From: Shigella phage vB_SflM_004
Length of the DNA stretch: 64,000 nt
Sequence record: MK295205
Strand: one strand, 5' to 3'
How positions within the stretch are numbered: the first letter of the stretch is position 1; each line of letters starts with the position of its first letter. The notes below the pieces were generated by a model, which was given only the letters and a program-made list of their open reading frames with translations, made no database searches and was not told the origin of the DNA. This document shows, in pieces, positions 3,873-51,340 of the stretch. A program made the position numbers and the translations under genes.

Positions 3873-3882
3873 AATATCTTAA

Positions 3883-3914: not shown

Positions 3915-3929
3915 ATAAAATTTTATCGG

Positions 3930-22520: not shown

Positions 22521-24335
22521 TTAAAGCTGCTTGTCAATATTATTTCGAATATCACCAAGAGTCGTGTAGCCGAACTGCTCAGAGTCGCTAAAGACTAGAC
22601 GTAAAGCACAAGCTGGATGCTCAAGTGCATCTGCAAAACTCTGGAATCCATAGCCATCTACAGCTTTCAGGTTCTCACCATCCCACATAGGGGCTACACC
22701 ACCAAAAGCAGACTTCTTAATACCACTATCTGTTTTAGGGTCTTTTGCAAGCATAATCTCTTTACCACCAATGCTTGCAAGAGTTGCTTTGACAGCAAAT
22801 GCAAAGGTGTCACGAGTCATGTACTGGTAAGTGTAAGAACCTACACCAAACACTACGTTAGAACTTGCAAAACCCATTTCATACAAACGCTTCAGTATTT
22901 CGTTTGCACGTTCCAACGTGATAGAGTCACCATAAATAAGTCCGATATGCTCATCCAGTACTTTAAAACCTTTAGAGTTGATAGTTCCTCCAAAGATGTT
23001 ATACAGTGTCTTGATAGCTCCATCAATCTCCGCCACAGGACGTGTTACAACGTTTGCAGAACCAACCATATAAGCGTTTTTCAACAGCACTGTATCAGCA
23101 ACTTCAAAGTCTTCTCTGTCAACAACCATTTCGTAGCCTTCTGACAGTAGCCATCCAGCAATACCATAATTGATGTTTTCAAGCTTCATGTTCAGAACAG
23201 CATTCAACATTGTGTCGCTGGCTTCCAGCTTGCTTAAGTGTTCGTAATAAGCCTTTTTAGCACACTCTAAATGGATTGCTTTGTATCCTGTGACAATATG
23301 TACAGGGTCTCCAGAATCAGGACGAATTACCAGTTTGCCATTGCGTTCCATAATCTCTTTACGGAGTTCTGGTAATATAACTGATACAGTTCTCCAGAAG
23401 TTATAAGTATCTGAAACAACACTTGCAATACCAGTTGGGTAAGTTTCTGTTAAGAAACGACGGAAGGTTTGTAACTCACCTTTAAAGCGTCTTTCTTCTA
23501 GCAAGTTGTCAGACTGTAACAGATGCCAATCATCAATCAACTCATTACCACCTTCCCAAGCAATGTTTGCACACATTACAGAATGTTCAGTGGCTGGTAC
23601 AGAACTACCAATATCAGAAATTGGGTAAGCCTGTCCATAGATGCGTTTAGCCGTGTATACAGCAGGGAAGCTATCAGTTCCTTTAAAGCTGGTTAAGTGG
23701 CCTACAGCGTTAAATGCGTCATCAGTAAAGCCAGACATACCACGCATAGCAAAGTCATGGCACTGATAAGGCAAATGTAAGTCGTTGTCACAAGTAAGGT
23801 CAGACCACTTCTTACAGATGCGTTTGTAGTGCAATGCAATAGTTGCAATGGTACAAGCCTTCCAAATCTCAGCAGAGAAAGCATCTTCCAGATACCCAGC
23901 TACCCAGTGGAAACCTGAAACAGTGTTCTGGAAGACAATCATTGGTACACGCATAGGGACAACTGTGCCTTCTTCTACAGCGTATACTTCAACTGGCAGA
24001 TAACCTAAGTCGTGAAGTGCTTCCCAATGCTCTCGACCAATAGCATCTTTACCCAGAACTCCGTTCATGACTTCTAAGATTTCATCAATTGCTTCTTTTT
24101 TGTCACGTTCGAAGAAGGTGGCGTTCCAGTGGTCTATCAGGTAATCTTTAACGAAACGTTGAATACCAAAAGCAACTACACCATCAATTGCTAAGGGGCT
24201 GTTAAACCATTTGTCACTACGTGGTGTCAGGTTCAACATAAGATATTGCGTAGCATCTGGATACTGATATATATGTGATGCCTTGTAAGCATCTGCATTA
24301 AGACCTGCTGGTACTGCGTAAAGTGACTTACTCAT
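22521..24335 (-). CDS. nicotinamide phosphoribosyltransferase family protein (NAMPT-like; candidate nicotinamide-ADPR transferase)
   Basis: 604 aa; NAMPT-type motifs GTDS, HSVM, RPDSGDP, YGDSIT; GAGAGAGA RBS. Confidence 0.85.
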   Translation of the reverse strand: MSKSLYAVPAGLNADAYKASHIYQYPDATQYLMLNLTPRSDKWFNSPLAIDGVVAFGIQRFVKDYLIDHWNATFFERDKKEAIDEILEVMNGVLGKDAIGREHWEALHDLGYLPVEVYAVEEGTVVPMRVPMIVFQNTVSGFHWVAGYLEDAFSAEIWKACTIATIALHYKRICKKWSDLTCDNDLHLPYQCHDFAMRGMSGFTDDAFNAVGHLTSFKGTDSFPAVYTAKRIYGQAYPISDIGSSVPATEHSVMCANIAWEGGNELIDDWHLLQSDNLLEERRFKGELQTFRRFLTETYPTGIASVVSDTYNFWRTVSVILPELRKEIMERNGKLVIRPDSGDPVHIVTGYKAIHLECAKKAYYEHLSKLEASDTMLNAVLNMKLENINYGIAGWLLSEGYEMVVDREDFEVADTVLLKNAYMVGSANVVTRPVAEIDGAIKTLYNIFGGTINSKGFKVLDEHIGLIYGDSITLERANEILKRLYEMGFASSNVVFGVGSYTYQYMTRDTFAFAVKATLASIGGKEIMLAKDPKTDSGIKKSAFGGVAPMWDGENLKAVDGYGFQSFADALEHPACALRLVFSDSEQFGYTTLGDIRNNIDKQL

Positions 24336-24353
24336 ATTTTATCTCTCTCTCTC

Positions 24354-24845
24354 TTAGTTATGTCTTGCAAACTCACCATGAAGTTCTATTCGCTTTTTAA
24401 TTACAGCTTCTTTTGCTTCTTCTACCGTTTTAAATCTTCCACAAAAGTATTCTTTATGGTAAAGCATGACTCTTGCTTTGTAAAGACCTGTTTGTTTACA
24501 AAAACTTACACCCTTCACACCAGTTTTATTATTCTTGTATATACCCCTATTCCTCTGATTTTGTGACTTTGTGCTAAGTCTTAAATTCTCCAACTTATTA
24601 TTAGATTTATCAAGGTCTATGTGGTCTATCTCATATCCACTTGGTATCTCACCTCCAGACATAATCCATGCAATATTATGTGCATAGTACCTCTTCTTAT
24701 TTATCTGGACTTGGATATAACCCTTCTTAGACCTTGTGCCAGCAACATTACCAGCAATAGCGGTATTGCAAAGGGTTACTTTCCAAATTAGTAAACCTGT
24801 CTCCGGTTCGTATATTAGGTATTTTTCGAAGTAACCCTTATCCAT
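24354..24845 (-). CDS. HNH homing endonuclease (HNH + AP2-like DNA-binding domain)
   Basis: 163 aa; YEPETGLLIW N-terminal motif, HIDLDKSNNKLENL HNH core, GVKGVSF...ARV AP2-like; sits between the NAMPT-like and Prs-like genes. Confidence 0.75.
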   Translation of the reverse strand: MDKGYFEKYLIYEPETGLLIWKVTLCNTAIAGNVAGTRSKKGYIQVQINKKRYYAHNIAWIMSGGEIPSGYEIDHIDLDKSNNKLENLRLSTKSQNQRNRGIYKNNKTGVKGVSFCKQTGLYKARVMLYHKEYFCGRFKTVEEAKEAVIKKRIELHGEFARHN

Positions 24846-24853
24846 TTTAATAC

Positions 24854-25735
24854 CTAATCCAAATTTGCTACAGTAACTTGACCATAATGTGTTAAACCAC
24901 GGTCTTTATCTTCCCCTAAAGAGTTTGTAGTGTAGATGTGGTCAATACCATTGTCAAGAAGGTTTTCAACACCTTTAGAAAAGATACCATGTGTTACATA
25001 GAGTTCCACACGTTTTGCACCTGCTTCACGAAGATGTTTAGCTGCTTCTATGAAGGTTCGTCCTCCATCACAAATATCATCCAGAATCATGACGGTTTTA
25101 TCTGTCAAATCAACATCATCAAGGATTCGTATACCAGTAATTTCACCAGTCTTAAGGTTACGTACTTTAGACATTGTGATGTATGGCTTATCCACCTCTT
25201 TAGCAGTCTCTGCAATCTTCTTAGCAGCACCTGCATCTGGGGCTACTAAGTAATCAACCAGTGGGTCATTTGCATAGTGGACTGCAATTTCCTTTTGAGG
25301 AATACTCTGGAAGCAGTTAAACAGGTTATCTGGTACATAACTGTGAGGGTCAACTGCACAGACTGCACCAAACCCCATTGCATTAACCTGTTTAGCAAAA
25401 ACCTTCAAAGCTGCTGCATCACCTTTAAACATGTGACGGTCATATCGTGCATTTGGTAAGTAGTAAAAAATGACAGTCTTTAAGGCATAGTCATGAGGGA
25501 CTAAATCATCAATTGCTTCTTTAGCAAGTGCCACAGCAAACAATGTGTCCTTATCATAACCTTTCACAATCATAATCACATTGTTGATAGATGATGCTGC
25601 ATAAGCAGTAAAATCAACAAGCTCTTGTGAAAAGTGTCCACCAATCTCACCAGAAGGGAATTGAATGATGTTAAACTCTTCTTCATGAGTCCCTTTAGTC
25701 GGTGAATGAACTGTAACACGGATAGATGTTTTCAT
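24854..25735 (-). CDS. ribose-phosphate pyrophosphokinase family protein (Prs-like; candidate ADP-ribose pyrophosphokinase)
   Basis: 293 aa; PRPP-synthetase fold signature including the ILDDICDGGRT loop; GAGAGAGAG RBS. Confidence 0.85.
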   Translation of the reverse strand: MKTSIRVTVHSPTKGTHEEEFNIIQFPSGEIGGHFSQELVDFTAYAASSINNVIMIVKGYDKDTLFAVALAKEAIDDLVPHDYALKTVIFYYLPNARYDRHMFKGDAAALKVFAKQVNAMGFGAVCAVDPHSYVPDNLFNCFQSIPQKEIAVHYANDPLVDYLVAPDAGAAKKIAETAKEVDKPYITMSKVRNLKTGEITGIRILDDVDLTDKTVMILDDICDGGRTFIEAAKHLREAGAKRVELYVTHGIFSKGVENLLDNGIDHIYTTNSLGEDKDRGLTHYGQVTVANLD

Positions 25736-25747
25736 AGTTTCTCTCTC

Positions 25748-26026
25748 TCAATCAAAAGTTACGTTTGTTACTGCCATTGCAGATTTGCATTTTGCAGGGT
25801 CTACAACGTGATAAAGTACACTACAGTTACCTGTGCTGTCTGGTACAGGTTTAACCCATTGTTGCTTGACAGTTGGTTCTCCTAAGTCTTTGTAAGAGCC
25901 ATCTGTAAAATTGTTTACCATCTCAAGTGCAATTGGTTCTGGGACATGACCACGTATCATGTACATTTCACAACCATTACCACCCTCACTGACTAGTGGT
26001 AAAATCTCCCACTTTTCTTTAGCCAT
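25748..26026 (-). CDS. hypothetical protein
   Basis: 92-aa ORF. Confidence 0.45.
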   Translation of the reverse strand: MAKEKWEILPLVSEGGNGCEMYMIRGHVPEPIALEMVNNFTDGSYKDLGEPTVKQQWVKPVPDSTGNCSVLYHVVDPAKCKSAMAVTNVTFD

Positions 26027-26534
26027 TGTAAGTTGCCCTATAAACTGTCTCGAACTTCAACAGGAGAGATATTGCCAAATATGTATAGTTGTTGTCAAGC
26101 ACATCTGGCATATTATTTTTGATATATTTCTCTTGCTCTTCATAGGTCATCTTAGGGGTGCTTAAAAGACTATCGCCTTGCCTCTGGTTATCAAGTTTAG
26201 TCTGGATAAACCAGTTTGCACAGTGATGTTCACCACCTTTTGTAACGGGTTTGTGATGACCTAATGTGAAGGATTGATTACCTGTGTATCTGCAAAGTTT
26301 ATTGAGAACTGTAATAGTGTTCTTCACAACAAAACATTCATACAGGTTGTCTATAGTGTAGTGTGGGTAATAGCGGAATAGTGCTCTTTCACGAGTACTA
26401 TCACGATTCCAGAGAATCATGTGATTAGAGTTAGAAGGGTCGTATTGGTGGGAGTCGATGAACTCTTGACGTTCCTCAAAGCTGAGTCTTAGAACTGACA
26501 TTGCAACCGAACGTTTCAGGTTTGACAGATACAT
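26019..26534 (-). CDS. HNH endonuclease domain protein
   Basis: 171 aa; LGHHKPVTKGGEHHCANWFIQTKLDN matches the HNH His-Me finger pattern; GGAG RBS. Confidence 0.6.
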   Translation of the reverse strand: MYLSNLKRSVAMSVLRLSFEERQEFIDSHQYDPSNSNHMILWNRDSTRERALFRYYPHYTIDNLYECFVVKNTITVLNKLCRYTGNQSFTLGHHKPVTKGGEHHCANWFIQTKLDNQRQGDSLLSTPKMTYEEQEKYIKNNMPDVLDNNYTYLAISLLLKFETVYRATYNG

Positions 26535-26585
26535 TTTATCTCCAAAATAAAAAGGGAACCTTTACAGTCCCCTTATAGTATCTGT

Positions 26586-26906
26586 TTACTGAGCTACTTT
26601 CAAGATGCTTGTGAATGAGATTTCACTCTCATCCATAAACTCTTTTGCTTCTCCAGTAACTTTTACAAAGTTATCTAGGCAGATAATCTTCTTATCTTTC
26701 TTGCTGTAGGTTAACTTAACCTTTTCAATATCTTTCTTAGGGCTTACCTCTTCATTGAAGAGTTTTACAGCCTCTTTGAATGGTAGATATGAGCCGTCAT
26801 TGTCACTGATGAATCCTGTACCACAGTAGTAGTAGTTATACTCTTTAGCCATAAACTGGCACAGTACGAAAATCTGTAATTTACGAGTGTTATAAACTTT
26901 GCTCAT
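26586..26906 (-). CDS. hypothetical protein
   Basis: 106-aa ORF with GAAGG RBS. Confidence 0.45.
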   Translation of the reverse strand: MSKVYNTRKLQIFVLCQFMAKEYNYYYCGTGFISDNDGSYLPFKEAVKLFNEEVSPKKDIEKVKLTYSKKDKKIICLDNFVKVTGEAKEFMDESEISFTSILKVAQ

Positions 26907-26908
26907 GA

Positions 26909-27166
26909 TTATTTAGCCTTCTTGTTACGTTTACGGTTACGAGCTTTCTTAGCTGCCCGTTTAATAGCTGCTGCACCAGTTGGTCGATGCGCTTGTTTTT
27001 TACCACCTTTGCCACGGCCTACATAGATACTTTTCATAATCTCATTAGCCAGCTTCTCATCCATCTTGAAGTTTTGCATGAGATGAGTCACATCAACACC
27101 AGTGAGCATACCTAGTGATGCCAGTGCTGCTTTTACTTTTGATTTAAAACTGTTCCAGAGTCCCAT
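26909..27166 (-). CDS. hypothetical protein with strongly basic C-terminal tail
   Basis: 85 aa; tail AAAIKRAAKKARNRKRNKKAK. Confidence 0.4.
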   Translation of the reverse strand: MGLWNSFKSKVKAALASLGMLTGVDVTHLMQNFKMDEKLANEIMKSIYVGRGKGGKKQAHRPTGAAAIKRAAKKARNRKRNKKAK

Positions 27167-27921
27167 TTCGTATCTCTCTCAATCTTTTCACAAAATGTTT
27201 TAAGTTCTTCTTCAGTGACACCAACAATACTGTCACCGACATTTAAATTTGTCGCGTAAAAGTTTGAGAAATGTGCTTTGTATTTTACTTTAAATACTCC
27301 GGCGTCCTCAATCTGCTTCAAGGCTGTCATTCCAGTGGAATCAAATAGGCTTTTTGTGTAGTTTCTCCACTCTTCAAGAGTTTCTGGATTGACTTTATAG
27401 CTACCAAACAGTGACATGTTACAAGCTACCATAACAATCTCACCACGTTTGAATCCACCATTTTCTGCTCGCCATTGACAATCACCTTGCCACCCATACT
27501 CTTTTCTCCAGAGGTTTTGGTTATCAGAACCGCGATAAGGTTTAACTGTTGGTTTAGATGAATCATACTTGCCGTCAATCACCACGTCAACATATTTCAT
27601 CACATCTAAGTGAATTTTTTCGTGTAACTGAAAACCTGTCCAAAGCCATATAGACTTCTCTGGGTAAACTGTCTTAATACGTTTGCAAATGTTGGTGACC
27701 TCTCGAATATTTCTATCATCCAGAGGTTCTCCACCAAGTATTGACAATCCACTAACGGCATTATCACCCATTAATTGGATGATTCCATAAAGGTTTGCAT
27801 AAGTAAACTCTTTACCAGCATTAAACTTCCAAGATTCCCTGTTAAAGCAGCCTTCACAGTGGTGCTTACAACCAGCTACAAAGAGGCTTACACGAACCCC
27901 TTCACCATTAGCGTGTGTCAA
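27133..27921 (-). CDS. nrdG: anaerobic ribonucleotide reductase activating protein (radical SAM)
   Basis: GEGVRVSLFVAGCKHHCEGCFN Cys cluster near the N-terminus; apparent TTG start with GGAG RBS ~10 nt upstream (no in-frame ATG nearby). Confidence 0.8.
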   Translation of the reverse strand: MTHANGEGVRVSLFVAGCKHHCEGCFNRESWKFNAGKEFTYANLYGIIQLMGDNAVSGLSILGGEPLDDRNIREVTNICKRIKTVYPEKSIWLWTGFQLHEKIHLDVMKYVDVVIDGKYDSSKPTVKPYRGSDNQNLWRKEYGWQGDCQWRAENGGFKRGEIVMVACNMSLFGSYKVNPETLEEWRNYTKSLFDSTGMTALKQIEDAGVFKVKYKAHFSNFYATNLNVGDSIVGVTEEELKTFCEKIERDTKWDSGTVLNQK

Positions 27922-27981
27922 ATGGTCGAATCTCCATGTAATTCATCTAGTTACCTCACCAATATTATTTAATTGTTTTAC

Positions 27982-28377
27982 TCATTCAAACACTACCTGA
28001 CAAGGAACCTGTTTAGTAATAAATTCTTCACAGTGTTCTTTAATGAAGTTTTGTAATGGCACACAGTCTTGTGCGCAAGTCATTAGCATAATGTACTCTG
28101 GATTCATGATATTTTCAAGACTGTAGAAGACAACATCACCAGATAGTTCGTGACCATCTTCTTCAGACCAAGTTCCAGTGACTACAGCTAATTTGTCAAG
28201 CAATTCATTAGGCAATGCTACACCGTCTTCTACGGAGTCACTTAGAACGTTGTCGCTGATGTACAATGTGAAGACCGTGTGGAATGTTGAGTATCTTACG
28301 TGATTCTTTTCGCAAGAGCCACACTCTGAGGCATAATCTTTAATCCACTCTAACTGTTTTTGGTTCAACTTAATCAT
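27982..28377 (-). CDS. hypothetical protein
   Basis: 131-aa ORF with AAGGTGA RBS. Confidence 0.45.
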   Translation of the reverse strand: MIKLNQKQLEWIKDYASECGSCEKNHVRYSTFHTVFTLYISDNVLSDSVEDGVALPNELLDKLAVVTGTWSEEDGHELSGDVVFYSLENIMNPEYIMLMTCAQDCVPLQNFIKEHCEEFITKQVPCQVVFE

Positions 28378-28420
28378 AATTTCACCTTAGTTGGTAATGC
28401 ACTGAATGCTATAGCTAACC

Positions 28421-28693
28421 CTAAGAATGGTTTGAAGCATGACCATAAATCCATATTGTTTGGTTGTTATCACAAACATACAGGTACTCTGTCCCGATTT
28501 GTGGGACGATGATTGTAGTGTTGCCTGATATGACTGTCATATAGTATAGGTAATTTCTACTCTGTGACGTTTGCTGACCATGATATGAGAAACCCCATTG
28601 TGGGTCTGAAAAACCCCACACCATAACACTAGCCCCAAAGAAGAAGACTAGAATATGTAGTATGTATATCAACGTTTTTGGTATTTTAAACAT
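28421..28693 (-). CDS. hypothetical membrane protein
   Basis: 90 aa; N-terminal hydrophobic helix LIYILHILVFFFGASVMVWGF. Confidence 0.4.
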   Translation of the reverse strand: MFKIPKTLIYILHILVFFFGASVMVWGFSDPQWGFSYHGQQTSQSRNYLYYMTVISGNTTIIVPQIGTEYLYVCDNNQTIWIYGHASNHS

Positions 28694-28847
28694 TTTAACT
28701 TATCTCTCAATTCACAATAAGAGAGTCCTAAAAAGAACCCTAGTAAGACAGAACCTATGAACAATCCAATAATATTCTCTGCCATATCTAACATCCAATA
28801 AAAAAGGTGATGTAAGCTTATCAAGACCCACATCACCTTGTCAAGTT

Positions 28848-30992
28848 TTACATAGAGATTCTGTCACGAATCTCAGCGATTTTTGCATCGTTCATTCGGG
28901 ATTCACCTTTAATCTTAGTCCATCCAAGATACCCACACACCCTGTTAATCACAGAGATATCATGTGAATGGCAAACCTCACATTCCTCAACATCAGCCTT
29001 TGGTCTGTTACCACAATGCTCACAGATTGCTAAGTCAAAGTTAAGCCCCTGATAAAAACCTTTCAACATCCCTCTTGTAATACAACTTTTAAGTGCTGGT
29101 AAGTTTTCTGGGTTAGCTACTCTTACATACTGGATTCTGCCACCTCTACAGATATGGAAGAATGGCTCTTCTAAGTCCTGCTTCTCAAATGGTGAGATGT
29201 CTGCTGCAACATTCATATGGAAACTGTTTGTAAAGTATTCTTTGTCAGAAACACCTTTAATAACACCAAACATATCTCTGAACTGTTTTAACTGAGTTCC
29301 ACAAAGTGATTCTGCTGGAGTGCCATAGACTGCATATAAGAAACCATCTTCATTTTTAAACTCTTCAGTCTTCATGTTGATGTATGCCAGAACATCGTAT
29401 GCAAAACTATAGCTTCCAACTTCATGAAGTCGTTTACCTTCAGCAAGAACAGATAACTCATCAAGTGCAGTAACCCCAAAAGAAGCTGTGAAGGACTTCA
29501 CGATATCCCAACCAACCTTATCAGTAGGTTTCTTAGTGCCTTTGTACAGACCGCCTTGTGTGAATGCAAGAGGGTTAGAACTTGCTGGCATATTAGCAAT
29601 CATTTCGTAGCGTTTCTTGTGGAAGCTGCGAATCATCTCTAGGTACTTATCAAGCTCTTTCCAGAAGTCTAAACCATTCTCTTTAGAATACTGGTAAATC
29701 ATTGGCAAGTTCAAAGATACAGCACCAATGTTAGCACGACCAACATAGAACTCTTCCCCATCCTCATTAAGATATGGAGATAAGAAGGCTCTGCAACCCA
29801 TCGGTGAAATCACCTTGCCAGAACGCTCAAAAGCCTCTGCTACAGCACCGTGACCAGATACACTTAAGAAATCTGGATACATTGCTTTAGAGCAACACTC
29901 AATAGCTTTACTGTACAGGTGACCTTGACAGATATTTTCATCATGTCTCTTCTGGTCATAGATATAAACCAGTTTAGGGAATACAACAGGTTTTTTGCTC
30001 TTACCTTGTCCATTCATACGAACATCTAAGAGAGTACTTGCAATCATGTATTGTAGTCGGTTGTCTTCATTAGACATATCTGAGTCAAGTAGTCCGAATG
30101 TCAAAGTTGTGAATGCAAAATCACCACGGCTGCAAGGTACAGTGTTCAGTTTCATTTCAAGTGACTGAAAACCTTGAGTTAATTCAATCTGTAGCTGCTC
30201 CATGACATAATTATGGTAATGTTCTTTAGGAATACCATAAGATGCTGCTTTCTCAGCATGGTAGCGTAGAGACTTCTTAGCATACGGTACAAGTACCTTA
30301 TCAATCTCTGCTAAAGTAAAGCCGCCAAATTGCTGTGCAGTTGCTGAAAGAACTACATCACCAATAACCTGTAAGGCTGACAGTACAGACTTCGGTTCAC
30401 AGTATTCGATGCCAGACATTTCAAAGCCACCTTTCAGTACTTTACCAATGTCAAACAGACAACAGTTGATACCACCAAAAATTAGGTCTCTTAAGTCATG
30501 GATGTAGATAAACCCTTTTTCAATGGCTTCAAGTTCCTCTGGTGTTAAATGGTACTGTTTAAAGATTTCTTTAGTCAGATAACCACGAATAATTGAGCCT
30601 TTTGTGGAAATTAAACTGCTGTCAAAGTTAGCATTTTCACGGTCACCTAAGAAGAGTGTGTCTCTAGTCTTTTGGTAAAGCTCATCCCAATTTTGAGCAA
30701 CCTCTTTACGGTAATTTCTATATGTTGAGTAAGACTCATAAATCTCGTGATTGACTTCTGCCAAAGCACCCTCAACAATACTGTGAATATCATTTACCGA
30801 GATTAGCAAATTATTCTGCTTAGTGGACTTTACCAGAATCCTCATAAATGCTGACTCAAGAGCTTGGGTAACATCTGGTGGAAGTTCTTTATACCCAACC
30901 CTGTTAGCTGACTTAGTTACTGCTGCTAAAACTTTTTTGATATCAGGTTCTTCAAGTGAGCCATTCTTTTTAATAATCTGTACTTTGTTCAT
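28848..30992 (-). CDS. nrdD: anaerobic ribonucleoside-triphosphate reductase, class III
   Basis: 714 aa; N-terminal ATP-cone; C-terminal glycyl-radical motif RVCGYLG; Zn-binding CEHCG...CEVCH. Confidence 0.9.
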   Translation of the reverse strand: MNKVQIIKKNGSLEEPDIKKVLAAVTKSANRVGYKELPPDVTQALESAFMRILVKSTKQNNLLISVNDIHSIVEGALAEVNHEIYESYSTYRNYRKEVAQNWDELYQKTRDTLFLGDRENANFDSSLISTKGSIIRGYLTKEIFKQYHLTPEELEAIEKGFIYIHDLRDLIFGGINCCLFDIGKVLKGGFEMSGIEYCEPKSVLSALQVIGDVVLSATAQQFGGFTLAEIDKVLVPYAKKSLRYHAEKAASYGIPKEHYHNYVMEQLQIELTQGFQSLEMKLNTVPCSRGDFAFTTLTFGLLDSDMSNEDNRLQYMIASTLLDVRMNGQGKSKKPVVFPKLVYIYDQKRHDENICQGHLYSKAIECCSKAMYPDFLSVSGHGAVAEAFERSGKVISPMGCRAFLSPYLNEDGEEFYVGRANIGAVSLNLPMIYQYSKENGLDFWKELDKYLEMIRSFHKKRYEMIANMPASSNPLAFTQGGLYKGTKKPTDKVGWDIVKSFTASFGVTALDELSVLAEGKRLHEVGSYSFAYDVLAYINMKTEEFKNEDGFLYAVYGTPAESLCGTQLKQFRDMFGVIKGVSDKEYFTNSFHMNVAADISPFEKQDLEEPFFHICRGGRIQYVRVANPENLPALKSCITRGMLKGFYQGLNFDLAICEHCGNRPKADVEECEVCHSHDISVINRVCGYLGWTKIKGESRMNDAKIAEIRDRISM

Positions 30993-31012
30993 TATTGCCC
31001 CTTTACATGCTA

Positions 31013-31033
31013 AAAAGGTCTCCGAAGAGACCC
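31013..31033 (-). terminator. rho-independent terminator
   Basis: Minus strand GGTCTCttcgGAGACC + TTTTT. Confidence 0.5.
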
Positions 31034-31040
31034 TTTCATT

Positions 31041-31247
31041 TTAAATCTTTTTAGAAAACTTTGAAACGAGTTTTCTTAGTTTTTCAGTGATGCCTAGCTG
31101 TATCTCTAATATTTCAAAGATAACCCATAGTAACATGGCTCCAAACAATGAACCTTGTTCAAAATCAGTAAATAGGTTAACAATGAGCATACCAATCACA
31201 ATGGCTGGTGCATCAACAACCAAGCCTTCCCAAAGGCGTTTAAGCAT
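31041..31247 (-). CDS. hypothetical small membrane protein
   Basis: 68 aa; hydrophobic core AIVIGMLIVNLF...LLWVIFEIL. Confidence 0.4.
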   Translation of the reverse strand: MLKRLWEGLVVDAPAIVIGMLIVNLFTDFEQGSLFGAMLLWVIFEILEIQLGITEKLRKLVSKFSKKI

Positions 31248-31482
31248 TATTCACCTCTGCCATAAAATTCTGTAGCGTTCCAACAGGTTTTAGATTTTGA
31301 CCATCAGTTTTCATGATGAATGGCATCTGACGAACTGGCATCTGTGCAATATCCATCAGGTCTGACAGTTCATAGTCCTGCCCTAACATTCTCACAACAT
31401 GGTCAATACCACGAGCTTTTGCAAAATTCTTTGCAGTCTCACACTGAGGGCATCCAGTTTTGGAGTAAATTACATAAGTCAT
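31240..31482 (-). CDS. glutaredoxin-like redoxin (RNR hydrogen donor)
   Basis: 80 aa; CPQC active-site motif near the N-terminus; immediately downstream of nrdB. Confidence 0.7.
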   Translation of the reverse strand: MTYVIYSKTGCPQCETAKNFAKARGIDHVVRMLGQDYELSDLMDIAQMPVRQMPFIMKTDGQNLKPVGTLQNFMAEVNNA

Positions 31483-32555
31483 TAAGGAACCTCTAAAAAT
31501 CCACTATTCAAATCATCTACAACAGTATTCAATAAATACGCACCGTTTTGTTGCTCCTGATTAGCATTCTGCTCTTTATCAATTTCCATCTTCTTAATCA
31601 TATACTTCAAAGGTGGTTCTTTAGGAGCTACAAAATCTCTGGGAATGCCAAACATATCATACAGTGGGGCAGCATTATAGTAAACCCACTCATGAAGAAG
31701 TTTTGTATTTAAACCAACTACAGCACGTCCTTCGGAGAAGATATAATACGACCATTTTTCTTCACTTTCAACTACTTCATCTAAGATTACTTTAATCTCT
31801 GGAAGAATTTGTTGGAAAGCTTTTTGCCACTCATCATCTCTTAAAGTTTCTTTTAAAACTTCAATATCAATTTTAGTGTGAAGGATTTCATCAAGCATAA
31901 TTTTCTGGACAGCTTGAGCAATACCCTGAAATTTATCTTGAGCATCAAGTGCAAAAGTACATGCAAAGGATGCCATAAAGGATATTCCTTCAAGTGCAGT
32001 CACTGCAAATAAACCTTTTAGAATCACTTTATGGAAGTGCAAAGGGTCTTTGTCCAGAAGTGAGTCACGTACATAACCCAGTCGATAGTTTATACCTTCA
32101 TCCAGTAATTCTTCAAGAACACGATTTACAGTTTTTAATCGGTCTTGTACAGCAATGTTCTGGTTAATCTCATCTAAGATTGTTTCAGGGTTTTTAATAC
32201 ATTGCCTTACAATCTCCGAGTAAGTCAGAGCGTGTAGGTTTTCAATCTCAGACTGCTTCATAATTGCAGTTGCATAAATGTCATCAGAGATGAATGGTGC
32301 AAAAGCAAACGCTAAACTCTTAGCAACTTGGGTATCTGCTTCCCACTGCCACTTAAGAATCTCAAGCATTACACCTGACATTGATGCTGGTACACTCTCA
32401 AAATCAAGACGTGATTGTTCAAAAGGAAACTCATCTTCTGACCAGTCTTGTGCTTTTTGTTGTTTATATAGCTCAAAGATTTTTGGGTAGTGTTTGTTAA
32501 GTGAGTCGAATGTCTTTCTCTCACCACCTAAAAAGATTGGGTGTTGGTTAATCAT
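31482..32555 (-). CDS. nrdB: ribonucleotide reductase small subunit, class Ia
   Basis: ORF 31482-32615 starts on TTG; first ATG at 32555 (MINQHPIFLGG); ferritin-like di-iron fold; follows nrdA. Confidence 0.85.
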   Translation of the reverse strand: MINQHPIFLGGERKTFDSLNKHYPKIFELYKQQKAQDWSEDEFPFEQSRLDFESVPASMSGVMLEILKWQWEADTQVAKSLAFAFAPFISDDIYATAIMKQSEIENLHALTYSEIVRQCIKNPETILDEINQNIAVQDRLKTVNRVLEELLDEGINYRLGYVRDSLLDKDPLHFHKVILKGLFAVTALEGISFMASFACTFALDAQDKFQGIAQAVQKIMLDEILHTKIDIEVLKETLRDDEWQKAFQQILPEIKVILDEVVESEEKWSYYIFSEGRAVVGLNTKLLHEWVYYNAAPLYDMFGIPRDFVAPKEPPLKYMIKKMEIDKEQNANQEQQNGAYLLNTVVDDLNSGFLEVP

Positions 32556-32809
32556 AATGTGATTTCTCCTTTCTTTATCATCTCTAAGGCTTGTTTTCTG
32601 TCTAAAACTTCCCAATTTTCTTTATTAAACATGTCATAAGGTCTTGCATAGATTTTACCATCTGCTGTAGAGATGTAAGAGACACCAGCGACCCATGAAT
32701 CATCAGCCTGTTTTATCATCATATCTGTGCTACTCACATAGTACAGTGTTTTTCGAGGTTTGTGGAGCAAGTATATAGGTCGCTCGTGATTTGCTATCAA
32801 ATCTTTCAT
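32552..32809 (-). CDS. hypothetical protein between nrdA and nrdB
   Basis: ORF 32552-32893 trimmed to the ATG at 32809 (MKDLIANHERPIY) with GGAG RBS. Confidence 0.4.
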   Translation of the reverse strand: MKDLIANHERPIYLLHKPRKTLYYVSSTDMMIKQADDSWVAGVSYISTADGKIYARPYDMFNKENWEVLDRKQALEMIKKGEITL

Positions 32810-32864
32810 AGTTTCTCCAAAGTTAATTTTAGAGGGTCTTTTACGACCCTCATAGTTATTAAAA

Positions 32865-35099
32865 CTAAACACCACAACCCTCGCAATAAGCATCTTGCAG
32901 TGCAGATTTACCTACACCGATGCGACTGTTAAGGTAGTACATGGTTTTCATACCTACCGAGTTGGCATAAACCATATACTTCAAAGCTTGAGCCAATGAT
33001 ACCTTCTTAGACTTTGCATAGTCAACATAGAAATCTGAAGAGATAGCTTGACCAGTGAACTTTTGAACAATTGCATAACAATCAATCAGGTCAAAGGTAT
33101 CAATATCCCAAGCAATTTCATAGACATACTTCAACTCTTCATAATCTGGAACAATAAACAGTACGTTACCAGTTGCAGACTTTTTAGTTAAAATAAAGTC
33201 ACGAATTGGGTACAATCCATTTGTTGTATTAGTCGCCAGTGAAGAACTCTCGTTAGGCATGTAAGCTTCTAATACAGAGTTGCGGATGCCACCATTTTCT
33301 TTGATACGTTGTGCTAAGTCATCCCAATCATATCTTAGTTTTGCATCATGCTTCTCATCAATCTTCTTGTTAGCTGTCTTCGGAGGAACCCAACCTTCAG
33401 GATACTTAGTGAACTTCATGTATTCGGGTACACCACGCTCTTTAGCAAGTCTTAGAGAAGCTTCATGCAGATAGTAAGAGTGCATCTCTGCAAGTTCGTG
33501 AAGCTTTGTCTTACCTGCTCTTGAAGAGTAGTTCACATAGTTTTTCGCAAGGTAATGAGCCACATTTGTAAGGCCAATCCCAACAGAGCGACGCTTCTGA
33601 ACATGGTTGCGCATCGACGGATACGGATAATCCATAAGGTCAATAACGGAGTCAACCATTGCAAGAGCATAATAAGCAACGTCAGCGTATTCATCTTCTG
33701 AAATTCTCCCTGCAACCAAACTAGCTAGGAAGCAAAGAGCTACCTCACCATCCTCTTTCACAGCATCATCTCTGTAAAGGTCTGTCTCTTTCTCAAATCC
33801 GTACACTGGCAACACAATTTCCATACAAAGATTTGACATCTTCAAAGGCTCTTTAAATGGTGTATGTGTGTTTGCATTATTTGTGAAGAATGGATACACA
33901 CGACCTGTTGCATAACGCTGCTGGATAAACAGTTTAGCAATTTCACGAGCCTTGACTCGTCTGTGTTTAACACCAGAATGTACTGCGTGACCAACTGCCA
34001 TAGCAAACTCATCAGCAGATGCAGTGTAGAACATATCATAAAGTTTTGGTGCATCCTTGTAAGAGAATAGCAACCAATCTGTATCATACTGAACACACTG
34101 CCAGAAATAATCATTTGTACCAAATGAGTAGTCCATCTCGTTAATACGTTTAGAAGGAACCGTTGTAGGGTGCTTCAAACGCAGTAAATCTTCAATCTGC
34201 GGGTCTAGAGCAGTGTAGAAGTTGTTAGCTGAACCACCACGACTCTTCTGTTTATTTGCCTCTACAGATGAACGTACAAGCTTGTAATAAGGCAGTTTAC
34301 CCATGTGTTCGATAGTGTTTTGACGGATACCATCACCAATAGTCCGAGTCTCCATCAGCATACCGATACCAGCTTGCTTTGTAGTCATGTCATAAGCAAC
34401 CTTTGCAGCAATACCAAGAGATTCAGCAGTATCGTTTGCCTTAATCAAACAGCATGACGCATAACCTGACTTAGTAGCACGTAAGCCATTCAGATAAGGC
34501 GTAGGTGCGTTAATCTTCAGGTCAGATAGGTAAGTGTACAGCTTAATAACATCTTGCAGTCTACGGTGCTTTGGTTGCTTCTCAAAGGCTTTCATAGCCA
34601 TACCCATAAACATAAATTGTGGTGACTCAAAAAGTCTTCCCGTTTTAATATCACGGATACCATATTTATCTCTGAACTGTTTCAACACTGCATAGCCGTA
34701 AGAGATATCTTTTGAGTGCACAATGTACCCTTGCAGATATTCAAGCTCTTCCTGAGAATAGTCCATCTTCTCCCAAAGTCCTGCTCTCTCCATATTTTTA
34801 ACGAAGGTAACCAGTGTAGGAACCTTAGTAAAGCCCCCAAAGGCTTCTTTGTAGATAATCCCCAGAAGTAGCCGCCCAGCCATGTCTGAGTACTCTTGAG
34901 TTTGCTTATCAACACAAACATCAATCATGGCTTGGTGCATCTCTTTTGTAGTGCAACCCTCATAGACACGCTTCATGGCTTCCATAGTGACTTCTGACCA
35001 GATGATTCCACGCTTATCTGCCCATGATGCCCACTTATTCAATCTTTCTGGGTCAAAGCTTACTACTGTACCGTTTGATTTTTTAATTGTCTTAATCAT
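32865..35099 (-). CDS. nrdA: ribonucleotide reductase large subunit, class Ia
   Basis: 744 aa; N-terminal ATP-cone; C-terminal Cys pair (CEGCGV) typical of NrdA tails. Confidence 0.9.
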   Translation of the reverse strand: MIKTIKKSNGTVVSFDPERLNKWASWADKRGIIWSEVTMEAMKRVYEGCTTKEMHQAMIDVCVDKQTQEYSDMAGRLLLGIIYKEAFGGFTKVPTLVTFVKNMERAGLWEKMDYSQEELEYLQGYIVHSKDISYGYAVLKQFRDKYGIRDIKTGRLFESPQFMFMGMAMKAFEKQPKHRRLQDVIKLYTYLSDLKINAPTPYLNGLRATKSGYASCCLIKANDTAESLGIAAKVAYDMTTKQAGIGMLMETRTIGDGIRQNTIEHMGKLPYYKLVRSSVEANKQKSRGGSANNFYTALDPQIEDLLRLKHPTTVPSKRINEMDYSFGTNDYFWQCVQYDTDWLLFSYKDAPKLYDMFYTASADEFAMAVGHAVHSGVKHRRVKAREIAKLFIQQRYATGRVYPFFTNNANTHTPFKEPLKMSNLCMEIVLPVYGFEKETDLYRDDAVKEDGEVALCFLASLVAGRISEDEYADVAYYALAMVDSVIDLMDYPYPSMRNHVQKRRSVGIGLTNVAHYLAKNYVNYSSRAGKTKLHELAEMHSYYLHEASLRLAKERGVPEYMKFTKYPEGWVPPKTANKKIDEKHDAKLRYDWDDLAQRIKENGGIRNSVLEAYMPNESSSLATNTTNGLYPIRDFILTKKSATGNVLFIVPDYEELKYVYEIAWDIDTFDLIDCYAIVQKFTGQAISSDFYVDYAKSKKVSLAQALKYMVYANSVGMKTMYYLNSRIGVGKSALQDAYCEGCGV

Positions 35100-35115
35100 T
35101 TTTGAATCCTACAGA

Positions 35116-35139
35116 TGAAAAGAGCCTCCGAAGAGGCTC
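35116..35139 (-). terminator. rho-independent terminator
   Basis: Minus strand GGAGCCTCttcgGAGGCTC + T-run. Confidence 0.5.
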
Positions 35140-35145
35140 CCTAGT

Positions 35146-35484
35146 TTAAATCTTGAAAATTTGCTCGTTCTGCCACATATCGTAAAACTTATCACTTACC
35201 TTTGTGACTGAAGAAGTGTGCATACAATTCAGGGAGAACCATGATGATGTATTATCATCCATAAGTGTTTCAAGTTTTTGTGTGATATTCACATCCATGT
35301 CTGCAACAACGTAATTACCTCGCATCTTGCAAACAATTCTTCCAAACAAGATTGCACTTCTGCCTCTTCGGTCGTCACAGTACATGACTGTGTCCCCGTG
35401 CTTAACGTCTTGTCCGATACTATCAACACCTAATTTAGCACCTGAGATAATGTCATCATAAGATAGCTTTTTTGCTTTAGACAT
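35146..35484 (-). CDS. hypothetical protein
   Basis: 112-aa ORF. Confidence 0.45.
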   Translation of the reverse strand: MSKAKKLSYDDIISGAKLGVDSIGQDVKHGDTVMYCDDRRGRSAILFGRIVCKMRGNYVVADMDVNITQKLETLMDDNTSSWFSLNCMHTSSVTKVSDKFYDMWQNEQIFKI

Positions 35485-35809
35485 GGTATTTCTCCAAGTT
35501 TCTTTTTAGATATAACCAACCATAGTCAGTTCTTTCTACACCCATGAAGAGTGGAGCCATTACAACTTTACCAAAAGTATTCCTGTGTTGACAGATTTCA
35601 AAAGAATACTCTTTCTCAATATCAATCCCGTATTTGTACAGAACTGCTTTTAAAACTTGTTCATTATCCAGAAGTGTATCTGGAGTCTCACCATACTTCT
35701 CAAGTAACGGGTCATTCATAAACACCGTCATAGAGATATTGTAGTTTGAGAAGTGGCTCTTCTGAGCCACACCTTCTTTATTAATGTTCTGTGAATCCAT
35801 TATAACCAA
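35477..35809 (-). CDS. hypothetical protein
   Basis: 110-aa ORF. Confidence 0.45.
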   Translation of the reverse strand: MVIMDSQNINKEGVAQKSHFSNYNISMTVFMNDPLLEKYGETPDTLLDNEQVLKAVLYKYGIDIEKEYSFEICQHRNTFGKVVMAPLFMGVERTDYGWLYLKRNLEKYHV

Positions 35810-36536
35810 CCCCTTTTAACCAGCACTTCAGGTTATTAGCATCATAATTCAGTTTTGGGTATGAGGTTACATGGAACTGCTCACCATCATAGTAGACAAT
35901 ATCTGCAATCCATAGTCCATTCTCTTTACAGAAATCTTTATCTGCTTTAGAGGTAATTGGATTAACTTCTACAAAACCATCTACACCCAAATCCTTTAAG
36001 CTACATACAATACCTTTGCAGATAACGCATGTCTCAGATACTACCACAAAAAGTTCTTGGCTTTCAAGTTCTACAATGTATTCACCAAGCTGAACTTTAG
36101 GGAGATTAGATTGCTTCATAATCTTCCCATCGGCTGCACGAACAATTGCATACCATTCTTTGCCATCAACTACTGACATTCTGATGATACACTCTTGACC
36201 AGTACGCTTCTCAATATCTGCAAGACGTTTTAAAGCTTCTTCATAGTCGTCTGTGTACTTCAGGTCATTATTATGGCAAACAGCTTCCATAGCACCATTA
36301 TGGTCATGTTGTGACAGGTAAATCAAACCGTCAAGAACATATTGCAAATCTGCCTGAGCATCCAGTGCCTCAATGGGGTCTTTCTCTTCAATTGCTTTTA
36401 CAAGCTCTTTTGCTTCTTCAAGCATACACAGGGACTGGGATTTCAAAGATTCCCAATACTCATCACTGTAAGGTTGCTTTTGGGTGTTTCCGCAACGAAG
36501 ATTCCAGTTTTTTACTGATTCTCTTGAGTTAAACAT
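35781..36536 (-). CDS. MazG-like nucleotide pyrophosphohydrolase domain protein (N-terminal) with C-terminal domain of unknown function
   Basis: LEEAKELVKAIEE...EALDAQADLQYVLDGLIYL resembles the MazG EExxE...D motif; 251 aa. Confidence 0.4.
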   Translation of the reverse strand: MFNSRESVKNWNLRCGNTQKQPYSDEYWESLKSQSLCMLEEAKELVKAIEEKDPIEALDAQADLQYVLDGLIYLSQHDHNGAMEAVCHNNDLKYTDDYEEALKRLADIEKRTGQECIIRMSVVDGKEWYAIVRAADGKIMKQSNLPKVQLGEYIVELESQELFVVVSETCVICKGIVCSLKDLGVDGFVEVNPITSKADKDFCKENGLWIADIVYYDGEQFHVTSYPKLNYDANNLKCWLKGVGYNGFTEH

Positions 36537-36774
36537 TCGGACTCCTTAAAAATCTGTTAACTTTTAGCTCTCGTGTTTCAATATATTCCAGATGCTCACG
36601 TAACTCTTGACGTTTAAGCATTAGGTGCTGCATTTGAGATTCAACAGCTTCAACCTCTTTAATTATTGACTCTCTGGCATTTGCAAGAATGCGCTCAAGT
36701 TCTTCAATCTTGCTGTCAACTTTTGCTACATGACTCACAGCTTTACTTTTGTTAAACATTTTATTCTCTCTCAA
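36529..36774 (-). CDS. hypothetical coiled-coil protein
   Basis: 81-aa ORF, charged/helical. Confidence 0.4.
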   Translation of the reverse strand: MRENKMFNKSKAVSHVAKVDSKIEELERILANARESIIKEVEAVESQMQHLMLKRQELREHLEYIETRELKVNRFLRSPNV

Positions 36775-36780
36775 TAGTTA

Positions 36781-37278
36781 TCAAGCACAGTTTGCTTTCA
36801 TTACCTTATGGATTCTTTTTTCAGCATCTTCATAAGTTTCTTTAGTAATAAACTTAATTGCTGCAATATTGGCATTGTAGAAGAGTCTGAGCTTAGAGTC
36901 AATCCTTTTTGTCATTACATCGAATTTATGTTGAAGGTTTGCTTCACCATAAACTAGACCACCTTTTGTGTAGTAGGTTTGAATAATGTAAAAGTCAAAA
37001 AACTCTTTTCCAAAACTCTCAATATCTTTTTTAATATACTCAGAAGAAGTCTCATAAGTCATCCAATCACTTTCCTTAGTGACTACCTTCTTCCGAGTCT
37101 TACCAGCAACTTTTCTTTTGGTCACACTATTAAGCTGTTTCTTTCCAATATAGTATTGTCCGGTTTTCTTACAGTGTACTAAATAGACAAAACCAAAATG
37201 TTTAGTGGGGTCAACTTCCCCACATAAAGATACCCAATGACCATAGGTGGGACAATTGCCAAATCCTTTAATCTTCAT
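36781..37278 (-). CDS. GIY-YIG-like domain protein (possible homing endonuclease)
   Basis: FGFVYLVHCKKTGQYYIGKK resembles the GIY...YIG core; adjacent to an HNH endonuclease. Confidence 0.4.
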   Translation of the reverse strand: MKIKGFGNCPTYGHWVSLCGEVDPTKHFGFVYLVHCKKTGQYYIGKKQLNSVTKRKVAGKTRKKVVTKESDWMTYETSSEYIKKDIESFGKEFFDFYIIQTYYTKGGLVYGEANLQHKFDVMTKRIDSKLRLFYNANIAAIKFITKETYEDAEKRIHKVMKANCA

Positions 37279-37774
37279 TCATACACGGCTCCTGATTTGT
37301 GAACTCTCTGTGAAGTTCTTCTCTTTTCTTTCTAATTGCTTCTTTGGCATCATCAACGTTATCAAACAGACCAAGGAAATGTGTTACACCGTGAACCATA
37401 ATCCTTGCTCTCCACTTCTGTGAAGCTTTGTTGAATGATACACCTTTTACACCAGATGTATTGTTGGAGTGTATTTTTCTATTCCAACAATTTTCAGCTT
37501 GAGTGCAAACTCTCAAGTTCATTCTTCGGTTGTCATCAGTAATTCCGTTACGATGGTCTACACGGTCTGGTAAGAACCCCTCTGTGTAAAGAATGGCTAA
37601 ATCATGAGCCATGTATGATTTTCTCTTTATGGTAATCCTGATATAACCCCTTTTATGGGGTGTTCCAGCAACTGAACCAATGACTGTCCTATTAGCCGAT
37701 TTCTTCAACCAAGTAAAGACCCCTGTTTCGGGGTCATAATGAAGATACTCTTTAAGTGTCTGCTGAGTCAACAT
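37268..37774 (-). CDS. HNH homing endonuclease (HNH + AP2-like domain)
   Basis: 168 aa; YDPETGVFTW, VDHRNGITDDNRRMNL HNH core, GVKGVSF...ARI AP2-like. Confidence 0.75.
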   Translation of the reverse strand: MLTQQTLKEYLHYDPETGVFTWLKKSANRTVIGSVAGTPHKRGYIRITIKRKSYMAHDLAILYTEGFLPDRVDHRNGITDDNRRMNLRVCTQAENCWNRKIHSNNTSGVKGVSFNKASQKWRARIMVHGVTHFLGLFDNVDDAKEAIRKKREELHREFTNQEPCMNED

Positions 37775-38798
37775 TTGGAGTCCAATTATATTTCTTAAAA
37801 GAGAAATTATCTTTTGGATTTCTCTCTTGATATGCTATCCAGAAATGCTGTTCCATTAGTTCTAATGGTGTCTTTGTGACAGTCTGTCCATCCCATGACA
37901 CATAGGTGTAAGACTCTTTTTTAGCATAGAGTTCATAGATAGCGTCAAGACACTCTTTATAGGTCTCTTTACCATCTAAAGCATTCATCACAGCTACTTT
38001 GCCAGCACCTTTAAGGCCGAAGTAGTTGTCTGCATTATCTCCAGCAACAGCCTGATAACACAAAAATTTAAAACCTACACCAACAGTTTTTGCAGCTTTT
38101 GGTTTTGATTTGATAGGACAATCCCAGATATCACCAACATTATTATCAGCAATAAAAATTAGTGGTGACTTTTCATAAGTCATATCAATACAATAAGTCC
38201 CTTCAGCTTGTCGAAGGTCTTTGTCAATACTCATAAGAGCAGCCTTCTTACCCATCTTTTCAGCTTTAGCAATTACGATGGAATCGGCTTCGAAGCCTCC
38301 CTTTAAGAGCTTGAACTCTGGTCTTGATAGAAGATATTCACGACAAGCAACTAAGTGTGTTGGTGTGACAGCCTCTTTACGGTTACCTTGATATTGGTGC
38401 TCAAGACCTTTAATGTCTTTATGTTTATGTACACCCTTCTCTGTTAAATAACCTACCCAAGTTCTTTCTTTACCAACAACCTTAAGCCATTCCTGAAGAA
38501 CCTGCTGAGTAGCCATGATAGCTTCTTTTTCACTCTTAGCTTCTTTCCAAGTCTGTCTTTCCCATTCATCTTCATCAAATGTCAGGCCAAGTTCTTCCAC
38601 AAGGATTCTCTGGTCTGCTAACCATCTTGCAGCATCTTTTGCATTATCAAATGGTTCAGATTCTTCTGCTGTGAGTTTATTGACATATTTATATTTTGCT
38701 TTCTCAACTACACAAGCACCTTTATAGGCAATACTGTCAGAGTCAATAAAGACATGTGTAACTGAATCGGGAAGTTTTTTTAATGTGTACTTCTCCAT
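37752..38798 (-). CDS. 5-prime-3-prime exonuclease / flap endonuclease (FEN, RNase H family)
   Basis: 348 aa; FEADSIVIA and MSIDKDLRQ match FEN acidic-cluster motifs; GGAGAG RBS. Confidence 0.6.
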   Translation of the reverse strand: MEKYTLKKLPDSVTHVFIDSDSIAYKGACVVEKAKYKYVNKLTAEESEPFDNAKDAARWLADQRILVEELGLTFDEDEWERQTWKEAKSEKEAIMATQQVLQEWLKVVGKERTWVGYLTEKGVHKHKDIKGLEHQYQGNRKEAVTPTHLVACREYLLSRPEFKLLKGGFEADSIVIAKAEKMGKKAALMSIDKDLRQAEGTYCIDMTYEKSPLIFIADNNVGDIWDCPIKSKPKAAKTVGVGFKFLCYQAVAGDNADNYFGLKGAGKVAVMNALDGKETYKECLDAIYELYAKKESYTYVSWDGQTVTKTPLELMEQHFWIAYQERNPKDNFSFKKYNWTPNVDSADT

Positions 38799-49284: not shown

Positions 49285-49379
49285 GGCACGTAATATGATT
49301 TTTATACTAGATTGAGACTACCATACCCAGATAGCTCCTTTTCCTTATCTAGCAATGCAATGACGCACTCTGGGAATAT

Positions 49380-50740: not shown

Positions 50741-51340
<600 letters not shown>

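Follow-up and report, generated by a model that had tools for sequence, protein, structure and literature searches.

The DNA considered here, hereafter the window, is a stretch of 64,000 nucleotides from the sequence record of Shigella phage vB_SflM_004 (MK295205), and our subject is a set of small nuclease genes located between positions 24354 and 37774, in particular two that encode proteins with an HNH domain and a C-terminal AP2 domain. The window is a Felix-O1-like myovirus genome of the Felixounavirus type (subfamily Ounavirinae): its gene order is the same as that of Salmonella phage Felix O1, wV8, and other members of the group, and the 18-kb stretch around the nuclease genes, which matched 265 phage records, finds its best match in Escherichia phage ULIM8 (97% coverage, 95.4% identity). 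The minus strand carries all genes between 21.7 and 44.4 kb. Occupancy by the nuclease genes was compared across approximately 230-250 related phage records; we use site A for the junction of prs with nadV (the NAMPT gene) and site C for the junction of the exonuclease gene with the GIY-YIG gene. The four genes are as follows.

24354-24845, minus strand: HNH-A, gene for a putative free-standing homing endonuclease with HNH_3 and AP2 domains, 163 residues, orthologue of Felix O1 ORF128
26019-26534, minus strand: gene B, conserved protein with an HNH-like motif, 171 residues, orthologue of Felix O1 ORF125
36781-37278, minus strand: SegE-type GIY-YIG nuclease gene, 165 residues, orthologue of Felix O1 ORF107
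37268-37774, minus strand: HNH-C, gene for a putative homing endonuclease with HNH_3 and AP2 domains, 168 residues, occupying the position of Felix O1 ORF106, with a sequence of the Moogle type

Domains and fold of the HNH+AP2 proteins

Both HNH-A (69.7 bits, E=1.6e-19) and HNH-C (32.8 bits, E=5.3e-8) pass the Pfam gathering cut-off for HNH_3 (PF13392, 24.8 bits). An AP2 match (PF00847) falls at the same C-terminal position in each, with 20.8 bits (E=4.7e-4) for HNH-A and 19.5 bits (E=1.2e-3) for HNH-C, and both proteins match phrog_99 over the full length. The AlphaFold model of HNH-A has a predicted local distance difference test score (pLDDT) of 94.5. Its HNH part consists of strands at residues 71-75 and 88-92 and a helix at 93-98, the beta-beta-alpha arrangement; its AP2 part consists of strands at 113-116, 121-128, and 131-138 and a helix at 141-159. 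Foldseek locates I-HmuI as the best structural match of this model (E=4.4e-4, probability 1.0) and superposes its AP2 part on the AP2 domains of TEM1 (7et5; root-mean-square deviation 1.3 Å over 53 columns, probability 1.0) and ERF1 (1gcc; template modelling score 0.70, probability 1.0), the deviations for AP2 domains overall being 1.3-1.7 Å. Because the confident model matches I-HmuI and plant AP2 domains, we regard the HNH+AP2 architecture as confirmed at the level of predicted structure, the AP2 part by structural comparison. Across an alignment of 78 homologues, N87, R89, and N96 never vary, and conservation of D74 and H75 reaches 90% or more.

The Pfam match, the fold model, and the positions of the open reading frames (ORFs) bear out the earlier reading of the window from its letters alone (the sequence-only reading), which had placed an HNH+AP2 gene between the NAMPT-like and Prs-like genes. 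The same reading had taken the two HNH+AP2 proteins for paralogs from their YEPETG and YDPETG motifs. Both motifs are present and the proteins are paralogs, with 43% identity (E=2e-44). They have 174 homologues at E<=1e-5 and are ordinary members of the HNH-AP2 group that is common in phages. The HNH-AP2 endonucleases of phages and cyanobacteria, reportedly proposed as the source of the plant AP2/ERF domains, have the same two-domain architecture, and nothing sets the window proteins notably apart from them. Judged from the model, HNH-A would resemble I-HmuI, the HNH nicking homing endonuclease of Bacillus phage SPO1 (PDB 1U3E), in being monomeric and elongated with an HNH core and flanking DNA-binding modules. 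I-HmuI differs in that it is intron-encoded and binds DNA at its C-terminus through a helical part and not through an AP2 sheet; the sequence identity is approximately 20%. Sequence searches of the PDB with HNH-A, the GIY-YIG protein, and gene B gave no useful match, and NCBIfam gave none for any of the six proteins searched.

Occupied and empty alleles at the two junctions

HNH-A starts 8 nt past the prs stop and ends 18 nt ahead of the nadV start. Comparison with empty alleles delimits three features at site A.

24350-24855, no strand assigned: segment present in occupied and not in empty prs-nadV alleles, approximately 506 nt (BLAST break-points against wV8, JH2, and GEP101, and alignment)
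24854-24868, minus strand: recoded last four prs codons and stop, GCA AAT TTG GAT TAG in the window and GCA AAC CTT GAT TGA in empty alleles (alignment)
24234-24284, minus strand: nadV codons 18-34, with approximately 20 clustered substitutions between the HNH-A-positive haplotype and the commonest empty-site haplotype (alignment)

An HNH endonuclease is annotated at site A in ULIM8, Felix O1, dune, pinkbiff, and Moogle. HNH-A is present in 61 of 235 records (at least 80% coverage of the junction query), and most of the other records align in two pieces spanning approximately 819 bp, which is the empty site. In the empty alleles of wV8, JH2, and GEP101, a spacer of approximately 45 nt with a GC-rich hairpin (GGGGCTTTTAAGCCCC) separates the prs stop from the nadV ribosome-binding site. 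The sequence-only reading had called for a comparison with relatives lacking the insertions, and in this comparison HNH-A and HNH-C prove optional at fixed sites; the empty alleles at both sites are intact and are not deletion scars.

The 200 nt of nadV adjoining HNH-A exist in two haplotypes. All 13 of the sampled Felix-like carriers of HNH-A have the haplotype of the window (93.9-98.5% identity), and in 35 of 44 sampled empty records this flank is only 80-86% identical to the window. Such clustered differences would look like co-conversion or a cleavage-resistant variant of the target, and we suggest nadV codons 18-34 as a candidate recognition or cleavage region. HNH-A is 99-100% identical to the pinkbiff copy with flanks at 93-96%, and 87-94% identical to the Moogle copy with flanks at 64-88%; that the gene is closer across genomes than its flanks, Moogle included, is no more than suggestive of horizontal transfer. 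The linkage of the flanks at site A looks natural.

Site C is organised differently. The nuclease genes had been described as intergenic insertions, which is correct for HNH-A between prs and nadV but not for HNH-C, which shares 23 nt with the exonuclease gene and 11 nt with the GIY-YIG gene. Two features are needed to follow the junction.

37293-37785, no strand assigned: block of 493 nt identical at every position in Citrobacter phage Moogle and contig L009; corresponds exactly to the 489-nt insertion relative to JH2
37752-38798, minus strand: 5'-3' exonuclease (flap endonuclease) gene, last 8 codons displaced by the insertion (alignment with codon reading; annotations of relatives)

Relative to the empty allele of phage JH2, in which the exonuclease tail is uninterrupted, the window has a 489-nt in-frame insertion (37293-37781) located 8 codons before the exonuclease stop. 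The exonuclease thereby has the new tail TPNVDSADT-stop, and its old tail, EPCMNED-stop, is now read by HNH-C, whose C-terminus is frameshifted to NQEPCMNED-stop instead of NHGEAYE-stop; HNH-C is 99% identical to P0020, from which it differs in this tail. Contig L009, a phage contig from a Shigella assembly, has its HNH gene at the same site. The flanks of the identical block are approximately 70-80% identical to Moogle and L009 and 93-99% identical to empty-site Felixounaviruses, and no flank conversion is seen around the window's own copy of HNH-C. Approximately 30% of sampled records have an HNH gene at site C and approximately 60% are empty; the ULIM8-type gene is present in 22 of 232 records, a further class has diverged HNH genes, and the majority are empty. 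At least four sequence types occupy the site (ULIM8, Felix O1/dune, pinkbiff, and Moogle). Over its 3' 500 nt (37800-38350), the exonuclease gene also exists in two haplotypes, approximately 77% identical, one of the JH2/wV8/ULIM8 type and the other of the Felix O1/dune/pinkbiff/GEP101 type; each is found both with and without an HNH gene, and the local divergence peak adjoins the endonuclease site.

The evaluation of site C was made more difficult by the appearance of the window itself. We lean towards the view that the window is a composite put together by computation, whether as a merged or consensus assembly or as a synthetic sequence, and that the alignment gaps of an empty-site Felix-like backbone have been filled from a Moogle-like genome; on balance, HNH-C and its flanks would then not come from the same molecule. 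Between 20.8 and 47 kb, the only Moogle-identical stretches are three patches that fill indels (23500-23532, 27245-27462, and 37289-37786), with no conversion of the flanks. The first is a 33-nt in-frame piece of nadV and the second is 218 nt downstream of nrdG, both 100% identical to Moogle. Two of the three patches have lost 1 nt at one joint: the loss at the right joint of 27245-27462 fuses nrdG to the next ORF, giving an ORF of 262 residues (27133-27921), and the other loss produces the frameshifted tail of HNH-C. Natural carriers of the ULIM8-type HNH-C have approximately 100 nt of diverged exonuclease sequence beside the gene, and the window has none. The junction sequences of site C are absent from IMG/VR, and across three public collections only chance 20-mer matches elsewhere were found. 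Of course, a precise insertion is also expected from homing with very short co-conversion tracts, the exonuclease-HNH-GIY-YIG layout is real in many phages, and the 21-47 kb part is otherwise coherent, with nadV, prs, nrdD, nrdA, and nrdB intact; a real recombinant of Felix-like and Moogle-like phages is an alternative source of the mixture.

Further traces lie downstream, where the backbone is Moogle-like from approximately 48.6 kb on. The 552-nt HNH gene of ekra, which follows the DNA polymerase gene in that phage, occurs in the window as 12 consecutive abutting pieces within 47350-50314 and 61586-61873, mostly 100% identical and set in Moogle-like backbone, and the DNA ligase gene is destroyed by stops and deletions. 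Between 53336 and 57908, pieces of a Maleficent-type HNH+AP2 gene alternate in order with DHFR and td sequence, each taking the place of a similar length of backbone (of precisely the same length in several patches), and both DHFR and td are frameshifted. In one patch (55747-55812), 66 nt of td now encode GDGLNNAWDNLREATKEQNMSN, which an exact search of IMG/VR and BLAST of the phage collection found in no natural phage. Furthermore, 62114-62624 lacks any counterpart of approximately 6.5 kb of Moogle (42.7-49.3 kb). That Moogle segment takes in a portion of the baseplate genes, those for the baseplate spike and hub, and the greater part of the tape-measure gene, and its loss would be expected to leave a phage inviable. 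We know of no biological process that scatters the pieces of an HNH gene in this way; the pattern is the one expected of a synthetic sequence or of merging along a stretched global alignment. Because the window looks composite, a signal of recent homing at site C is unsafe and the features past approximately 47 kb should not be interpreted biologically; for practical purposes, this appearance is more important than the endonuclease genes themselves.

Proposed homing endonucleases and resident nucleases

We conclude, with a probability of roughly 0.75, that HNH-A and HNH-C are free-standing homing endonuclease genes and that the GIY-YIG gene and gene B are fixed residents. The sequence-only reading had taken all four for homing endonucleases; this is retained for HNH-A and HNH-C and given up for the other two, which stand at an identical site in nearly all relatives. 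In the mechanism that we propose, by analogy with I-HmuI and the T4 Seg/Mob enzymes, the HNH+AP2 protein, probably a monomer, would use its N-terminal beta-strands and C-terminal AP2 sheet to recognise a long, asymmetric stretch of DNA, and its HNH beta-beta-alpha-metal centre would nick or cut the allele that lacks the endonuclease gene in a co-infecting relative. Repair of the cut genome by recombination with that of the carrier would then transfer the gene together with part of its flanks. At site A, HNH-A replaces the hairpin spacer of approximately 45 nt and travels with the haplotype of nadV codons 18-34 and the recoded prs end, both of which plausibly make the carrier allele uncuttable. 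At site C, HNH-C supplies a new exonuclease tail and keeps the overlapping, translationally coupled layout. What the sequences show is domain identity, fold, paralogy, polymorphism among relatives, insertion boundaries, and linkage to flank haplotypes; cleavage, the place of its target, homing, and any marker exclusion, which the sequence-only reading had mentioned, are inferred.

The closest functional parallel is provided by the free-standing homing endonucleases of T4-like phages, which reportedly comprise the GIY-YIG Seg and HNH Mob families, with mobE, for example, between nrdA and nrdB. Like these, the HNH+AP2 genes of the window are small, lie between or at the ends of conserved nucleotide-metabolism genes, are optional, and would spread with co-conversion of their flanks, and the GIY-YIG protein matches the SegE catalytic-domain family. 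The differences are that the HNH genes of the window have an AP2 domain and that its GIY-YIG protein is without the Seg C-terminal DNA-binding region and is fixed rather than optional.

Several observations weigh against our conclusion. The AP2 sequence score is under the Pfam cut-off (33.3 bits) in both paralogs. The association of HNH-A with the nadV haplotype (Fisher p=2e-7) is calculated ignoring shared ancestry, and 9 of the 44 sampled empty records hold the "occupied" nadV haplotype. The strongest apparent signal of transfer, the site C block that is 100% identical to Moogle with flanks at approximately 80%, is compromised by the composite look of the window. Finally, we found no published demonstration of cleavage or homing for any Felixounavirus endonuclease.

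The GIY-YIG gene and possibly gene B could instead be domesticated nucleases, with a housekeeping or competitive role (degradation of host or rival DNA, processing of recombination intermediates) and no selfish one, an explanation to which we give slightly less than even odds. The GIY-YIG protein matches SegE_GIY-YIG (PF19835) over profile positions 10-123 of 123 with 97.4 bits (E=9.4e-28; cut-off 25 bits). Its gene is present in approximately 296 Ounavirinae records at 60% protein identity or more by tblastn, which also finds approximately 468 more distant phages, and its nucleotide identity to L009 (72-89%) is equal to that of its flanks. The gene is a fixed resident of Ounavirinae and is not currently mobile. 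Domestication is favoured by this wide presence and flank-like divergence, by the single-domain homologue at a recurrent position in T4-like cyanophages, and by the architecture of the protein: the catalytic domain ends at residue 138 of 165, and in the remaining 27 residues Pfam, NCBIfam, and PDB searches gave no separate C-terminal DNA-binding region, hence no recognisable DNA-binding module. However, a fixed but active homing endonuclease would yield the same pattern. The pairing of the GIY-YIG and HNH+AP2 genes at 36781-37774 had been noted in the sequence-only reading, and both domain calls stand; the pair does not reach the MazG-like gene, which is preceded by an ORF of 81 residues (36529-36774). 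As a side observation, the GIY-YIG family (phrog_447) is widely labelled "NAD synthetase", including in hundreds of records of T4-like cyanophages, whose homologue is 28-37% identical. The label is a propagated mis-annotation of a SegE-type GIY-YIG nuclease, Felix O1 ORF107 included.

Gene B contributes to the same explanation by being conserved, restricted to one lineage, and marked by an invariant motif, GHHKPVTKGGEHHxxNWxIQTxxDNQxQ. Its family is confined to Ounavirinae-type phages (19 clusters), is near-universal there (169 of 222 records at 80% coverage or more), and diverges in step with its flanks; we therefore describe it as a fixed, vertically inherited, nuclease-like gene that is not currently mobile. 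The claim of an HNH gene near nrdG at 26019-26534 is not confirmed, nor is homing endonuclease status: the ORF exists and has the motif, and the profile and fold searches were negative. The protein matches phrog_3500, of unknown function (E=1e-91), and matches the HNH family phrog_2214 weakly (E=5.9e-4); Pfam gave no HNH match for the family, including in a member-by-member scan, and neither NCBIfam nor Foldseek gave a match for gene B. A beta-beta-alpha element is predicted at residues 89-121 with low confidence (pLDDT 64). The idea that gene B is a third HNH+AP2 paralog was rejected (hhalign profile-profile probability 0.3%), as was a PDB sequence match to protein A, which is spurious and due to low complexity. 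Against domestication, gene B is dispensable in GEP101 and S19cd, where a DNA methylase cassette takes the place of most of it and of an overlapping ORF of 92 residues (window 25853-26414; locus L007 12834-13929), leaving approximately 40 N-terminal codons beside the cassette. The gene B locus is therefore a swap site for nuclease-like and methylase genes.

Two more far-reaching readings we consider doubtful. In the first, the exonuclease-GIY-YIG junction would be a live point of exchange between genera, having received a Mooglevirus HNH+AP2 cassette into a Felixounavirus backbone. In the second, the fixed GIY-YIG protein and HNH-like gene B would be domesticated nucleases with a core role or a role in competition between phages. 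Were the exchange point real, the nucleotide-exact boundaries with no co-conversion would mean repair via microhomology rather than through long homologous tracts.

Repeated loss of ancestral, inactive endonuclease genes, with no active homing, would also explain presence and absence, and we judge it improbable. Occupied and empty alleles are both spread across the genus, the "occupied" nadV haplotype persists in some phages with an empty site, as loss would predict, and decayed or truncated copies exist (the Moogle site C gene is annotated at 339 bp). However, the empty alleles bear no scars, site A having its own hairpin spacer and different prs coding and site C an intact exonuclease tail; comparison across genomes and across genera shows HNH-A to be more alike than its flanks; site C is shared by several sequence types that are unrelated; and the catalytic residues are conserved. 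Two other candidates were rejected outright: packaging-associated HNH proteins, as terminase is not nearby (in Felix O1 it lies outside this region), and inteins or introns, as the endonucleases are encoded by free-standing ORFs next to complete genes.

Homing of HNH-A and HNH-C is thus our preferred interpretation, and the finding is real but ordinary and already known, as these genes have been annotated at these positions in Felix O1 and many relatives. Felix O1 ORF128 (NP_945017), ORF106 (NP_944978), and ORF107 (NP_944980), and the orthologues in wV8, dune, pinkbiff, and Moogle, are located at the same three sites, under the names HNH endonuclease, HNH homing endonuclease, and GIY-YIG homing endonuclease. 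HNH-C of the window differs from the Felix O1 and ULIM8 types in its Moogle sequence type and frameshifted tail. Six HNH-like copies have been counted in Felix O1 (Whichard et al. 2010, PMC3185647), and homing endonucleases have been noted across Felixounavirus (PMC8300805). The prs-nadV and exonuclease-GIY-YIG junctions are variable endonuclease sites in Ounavirinae and should be avoided, with the neighbouring 100-500 nt, in phylogenies. The polymorphism of nadV codons 18-34 offers a concrete candidate target for homing tests in Felix-O1-like therapeutic phages. Annotators should treat the "NAD synthetase" label, and the "putative HNH" label considered below, with care as mis-annotations.

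Distribution of endonuclease genes and other observations

The concentration of homing endonucleases in nucleotide-metabolism and replication operons, as proposed from the sequence, is weak: three independent loci lie in a block that is 40% of the window, which we take to be no more than chance and choice of window. A census of the other ORFs of the window with Pfam, PHROGs, and a custom HNH model found no further intact endonuclease gene; it did find endonuclease fragments near the ligase gene and in the DHFR-td region. Felix O1 has three further HNH genes (ORF44, 45, and 47; locus L013 25030-27726) among the tRNA genes of its tRNA cluster, a second hot spot; the window has no tRNA genes, the cluster falling outside it. 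In other relatives, endonuclease genes split nrdD or follow the DNA polymerase gene, and the replication module is therefore one hot region and not the sole one. The nrdD gene, intact in the window (28848-30992), is interrupted in pinkbiff and JH2 (loci L005 and L006) by an HNH gene of 465 bp and is annotated as split in SME50 and SP116; JH2 has an additional homing endonuclease gene of 567 bp directly downstream of nrdD.

The orthologues of a neighbour of gene B, the ORF of 106 residues at 26586-26906, bear the label "putative HNH (homing) endonuclease" in records of wV8, dune, pinkbiff, and others. The sole match of this ORF was to a PHROG of unknown function, NCBIfam giving none, with no support for an HNH domain, and the label looks like a propagated error, placed on the wrong neighbouring gene. 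A promoter and terminator scan of the window gave counts close to shuffle expectation and no signal peculiar to the endonuclease genes; a terminator-like hairpin was located at 26552-26574, upstream of gene B.

Two minor observations concern the remainder of the window. The C-terminus of the DNA polymerase (47300-47378) and the ORF at 50744-51340 (at 50930-50970) have a string of 12 residues in common, possibly another trace of compositing. Two tandem segments of approximately 1.2 kb (1420-2600 and 2846-4029) are 92.7% identical to one another and each approximately 91-92% identical to the single ORF24-25 region of Felix O1; they reflect either genuine duplication or the joining of two source versions end to end.

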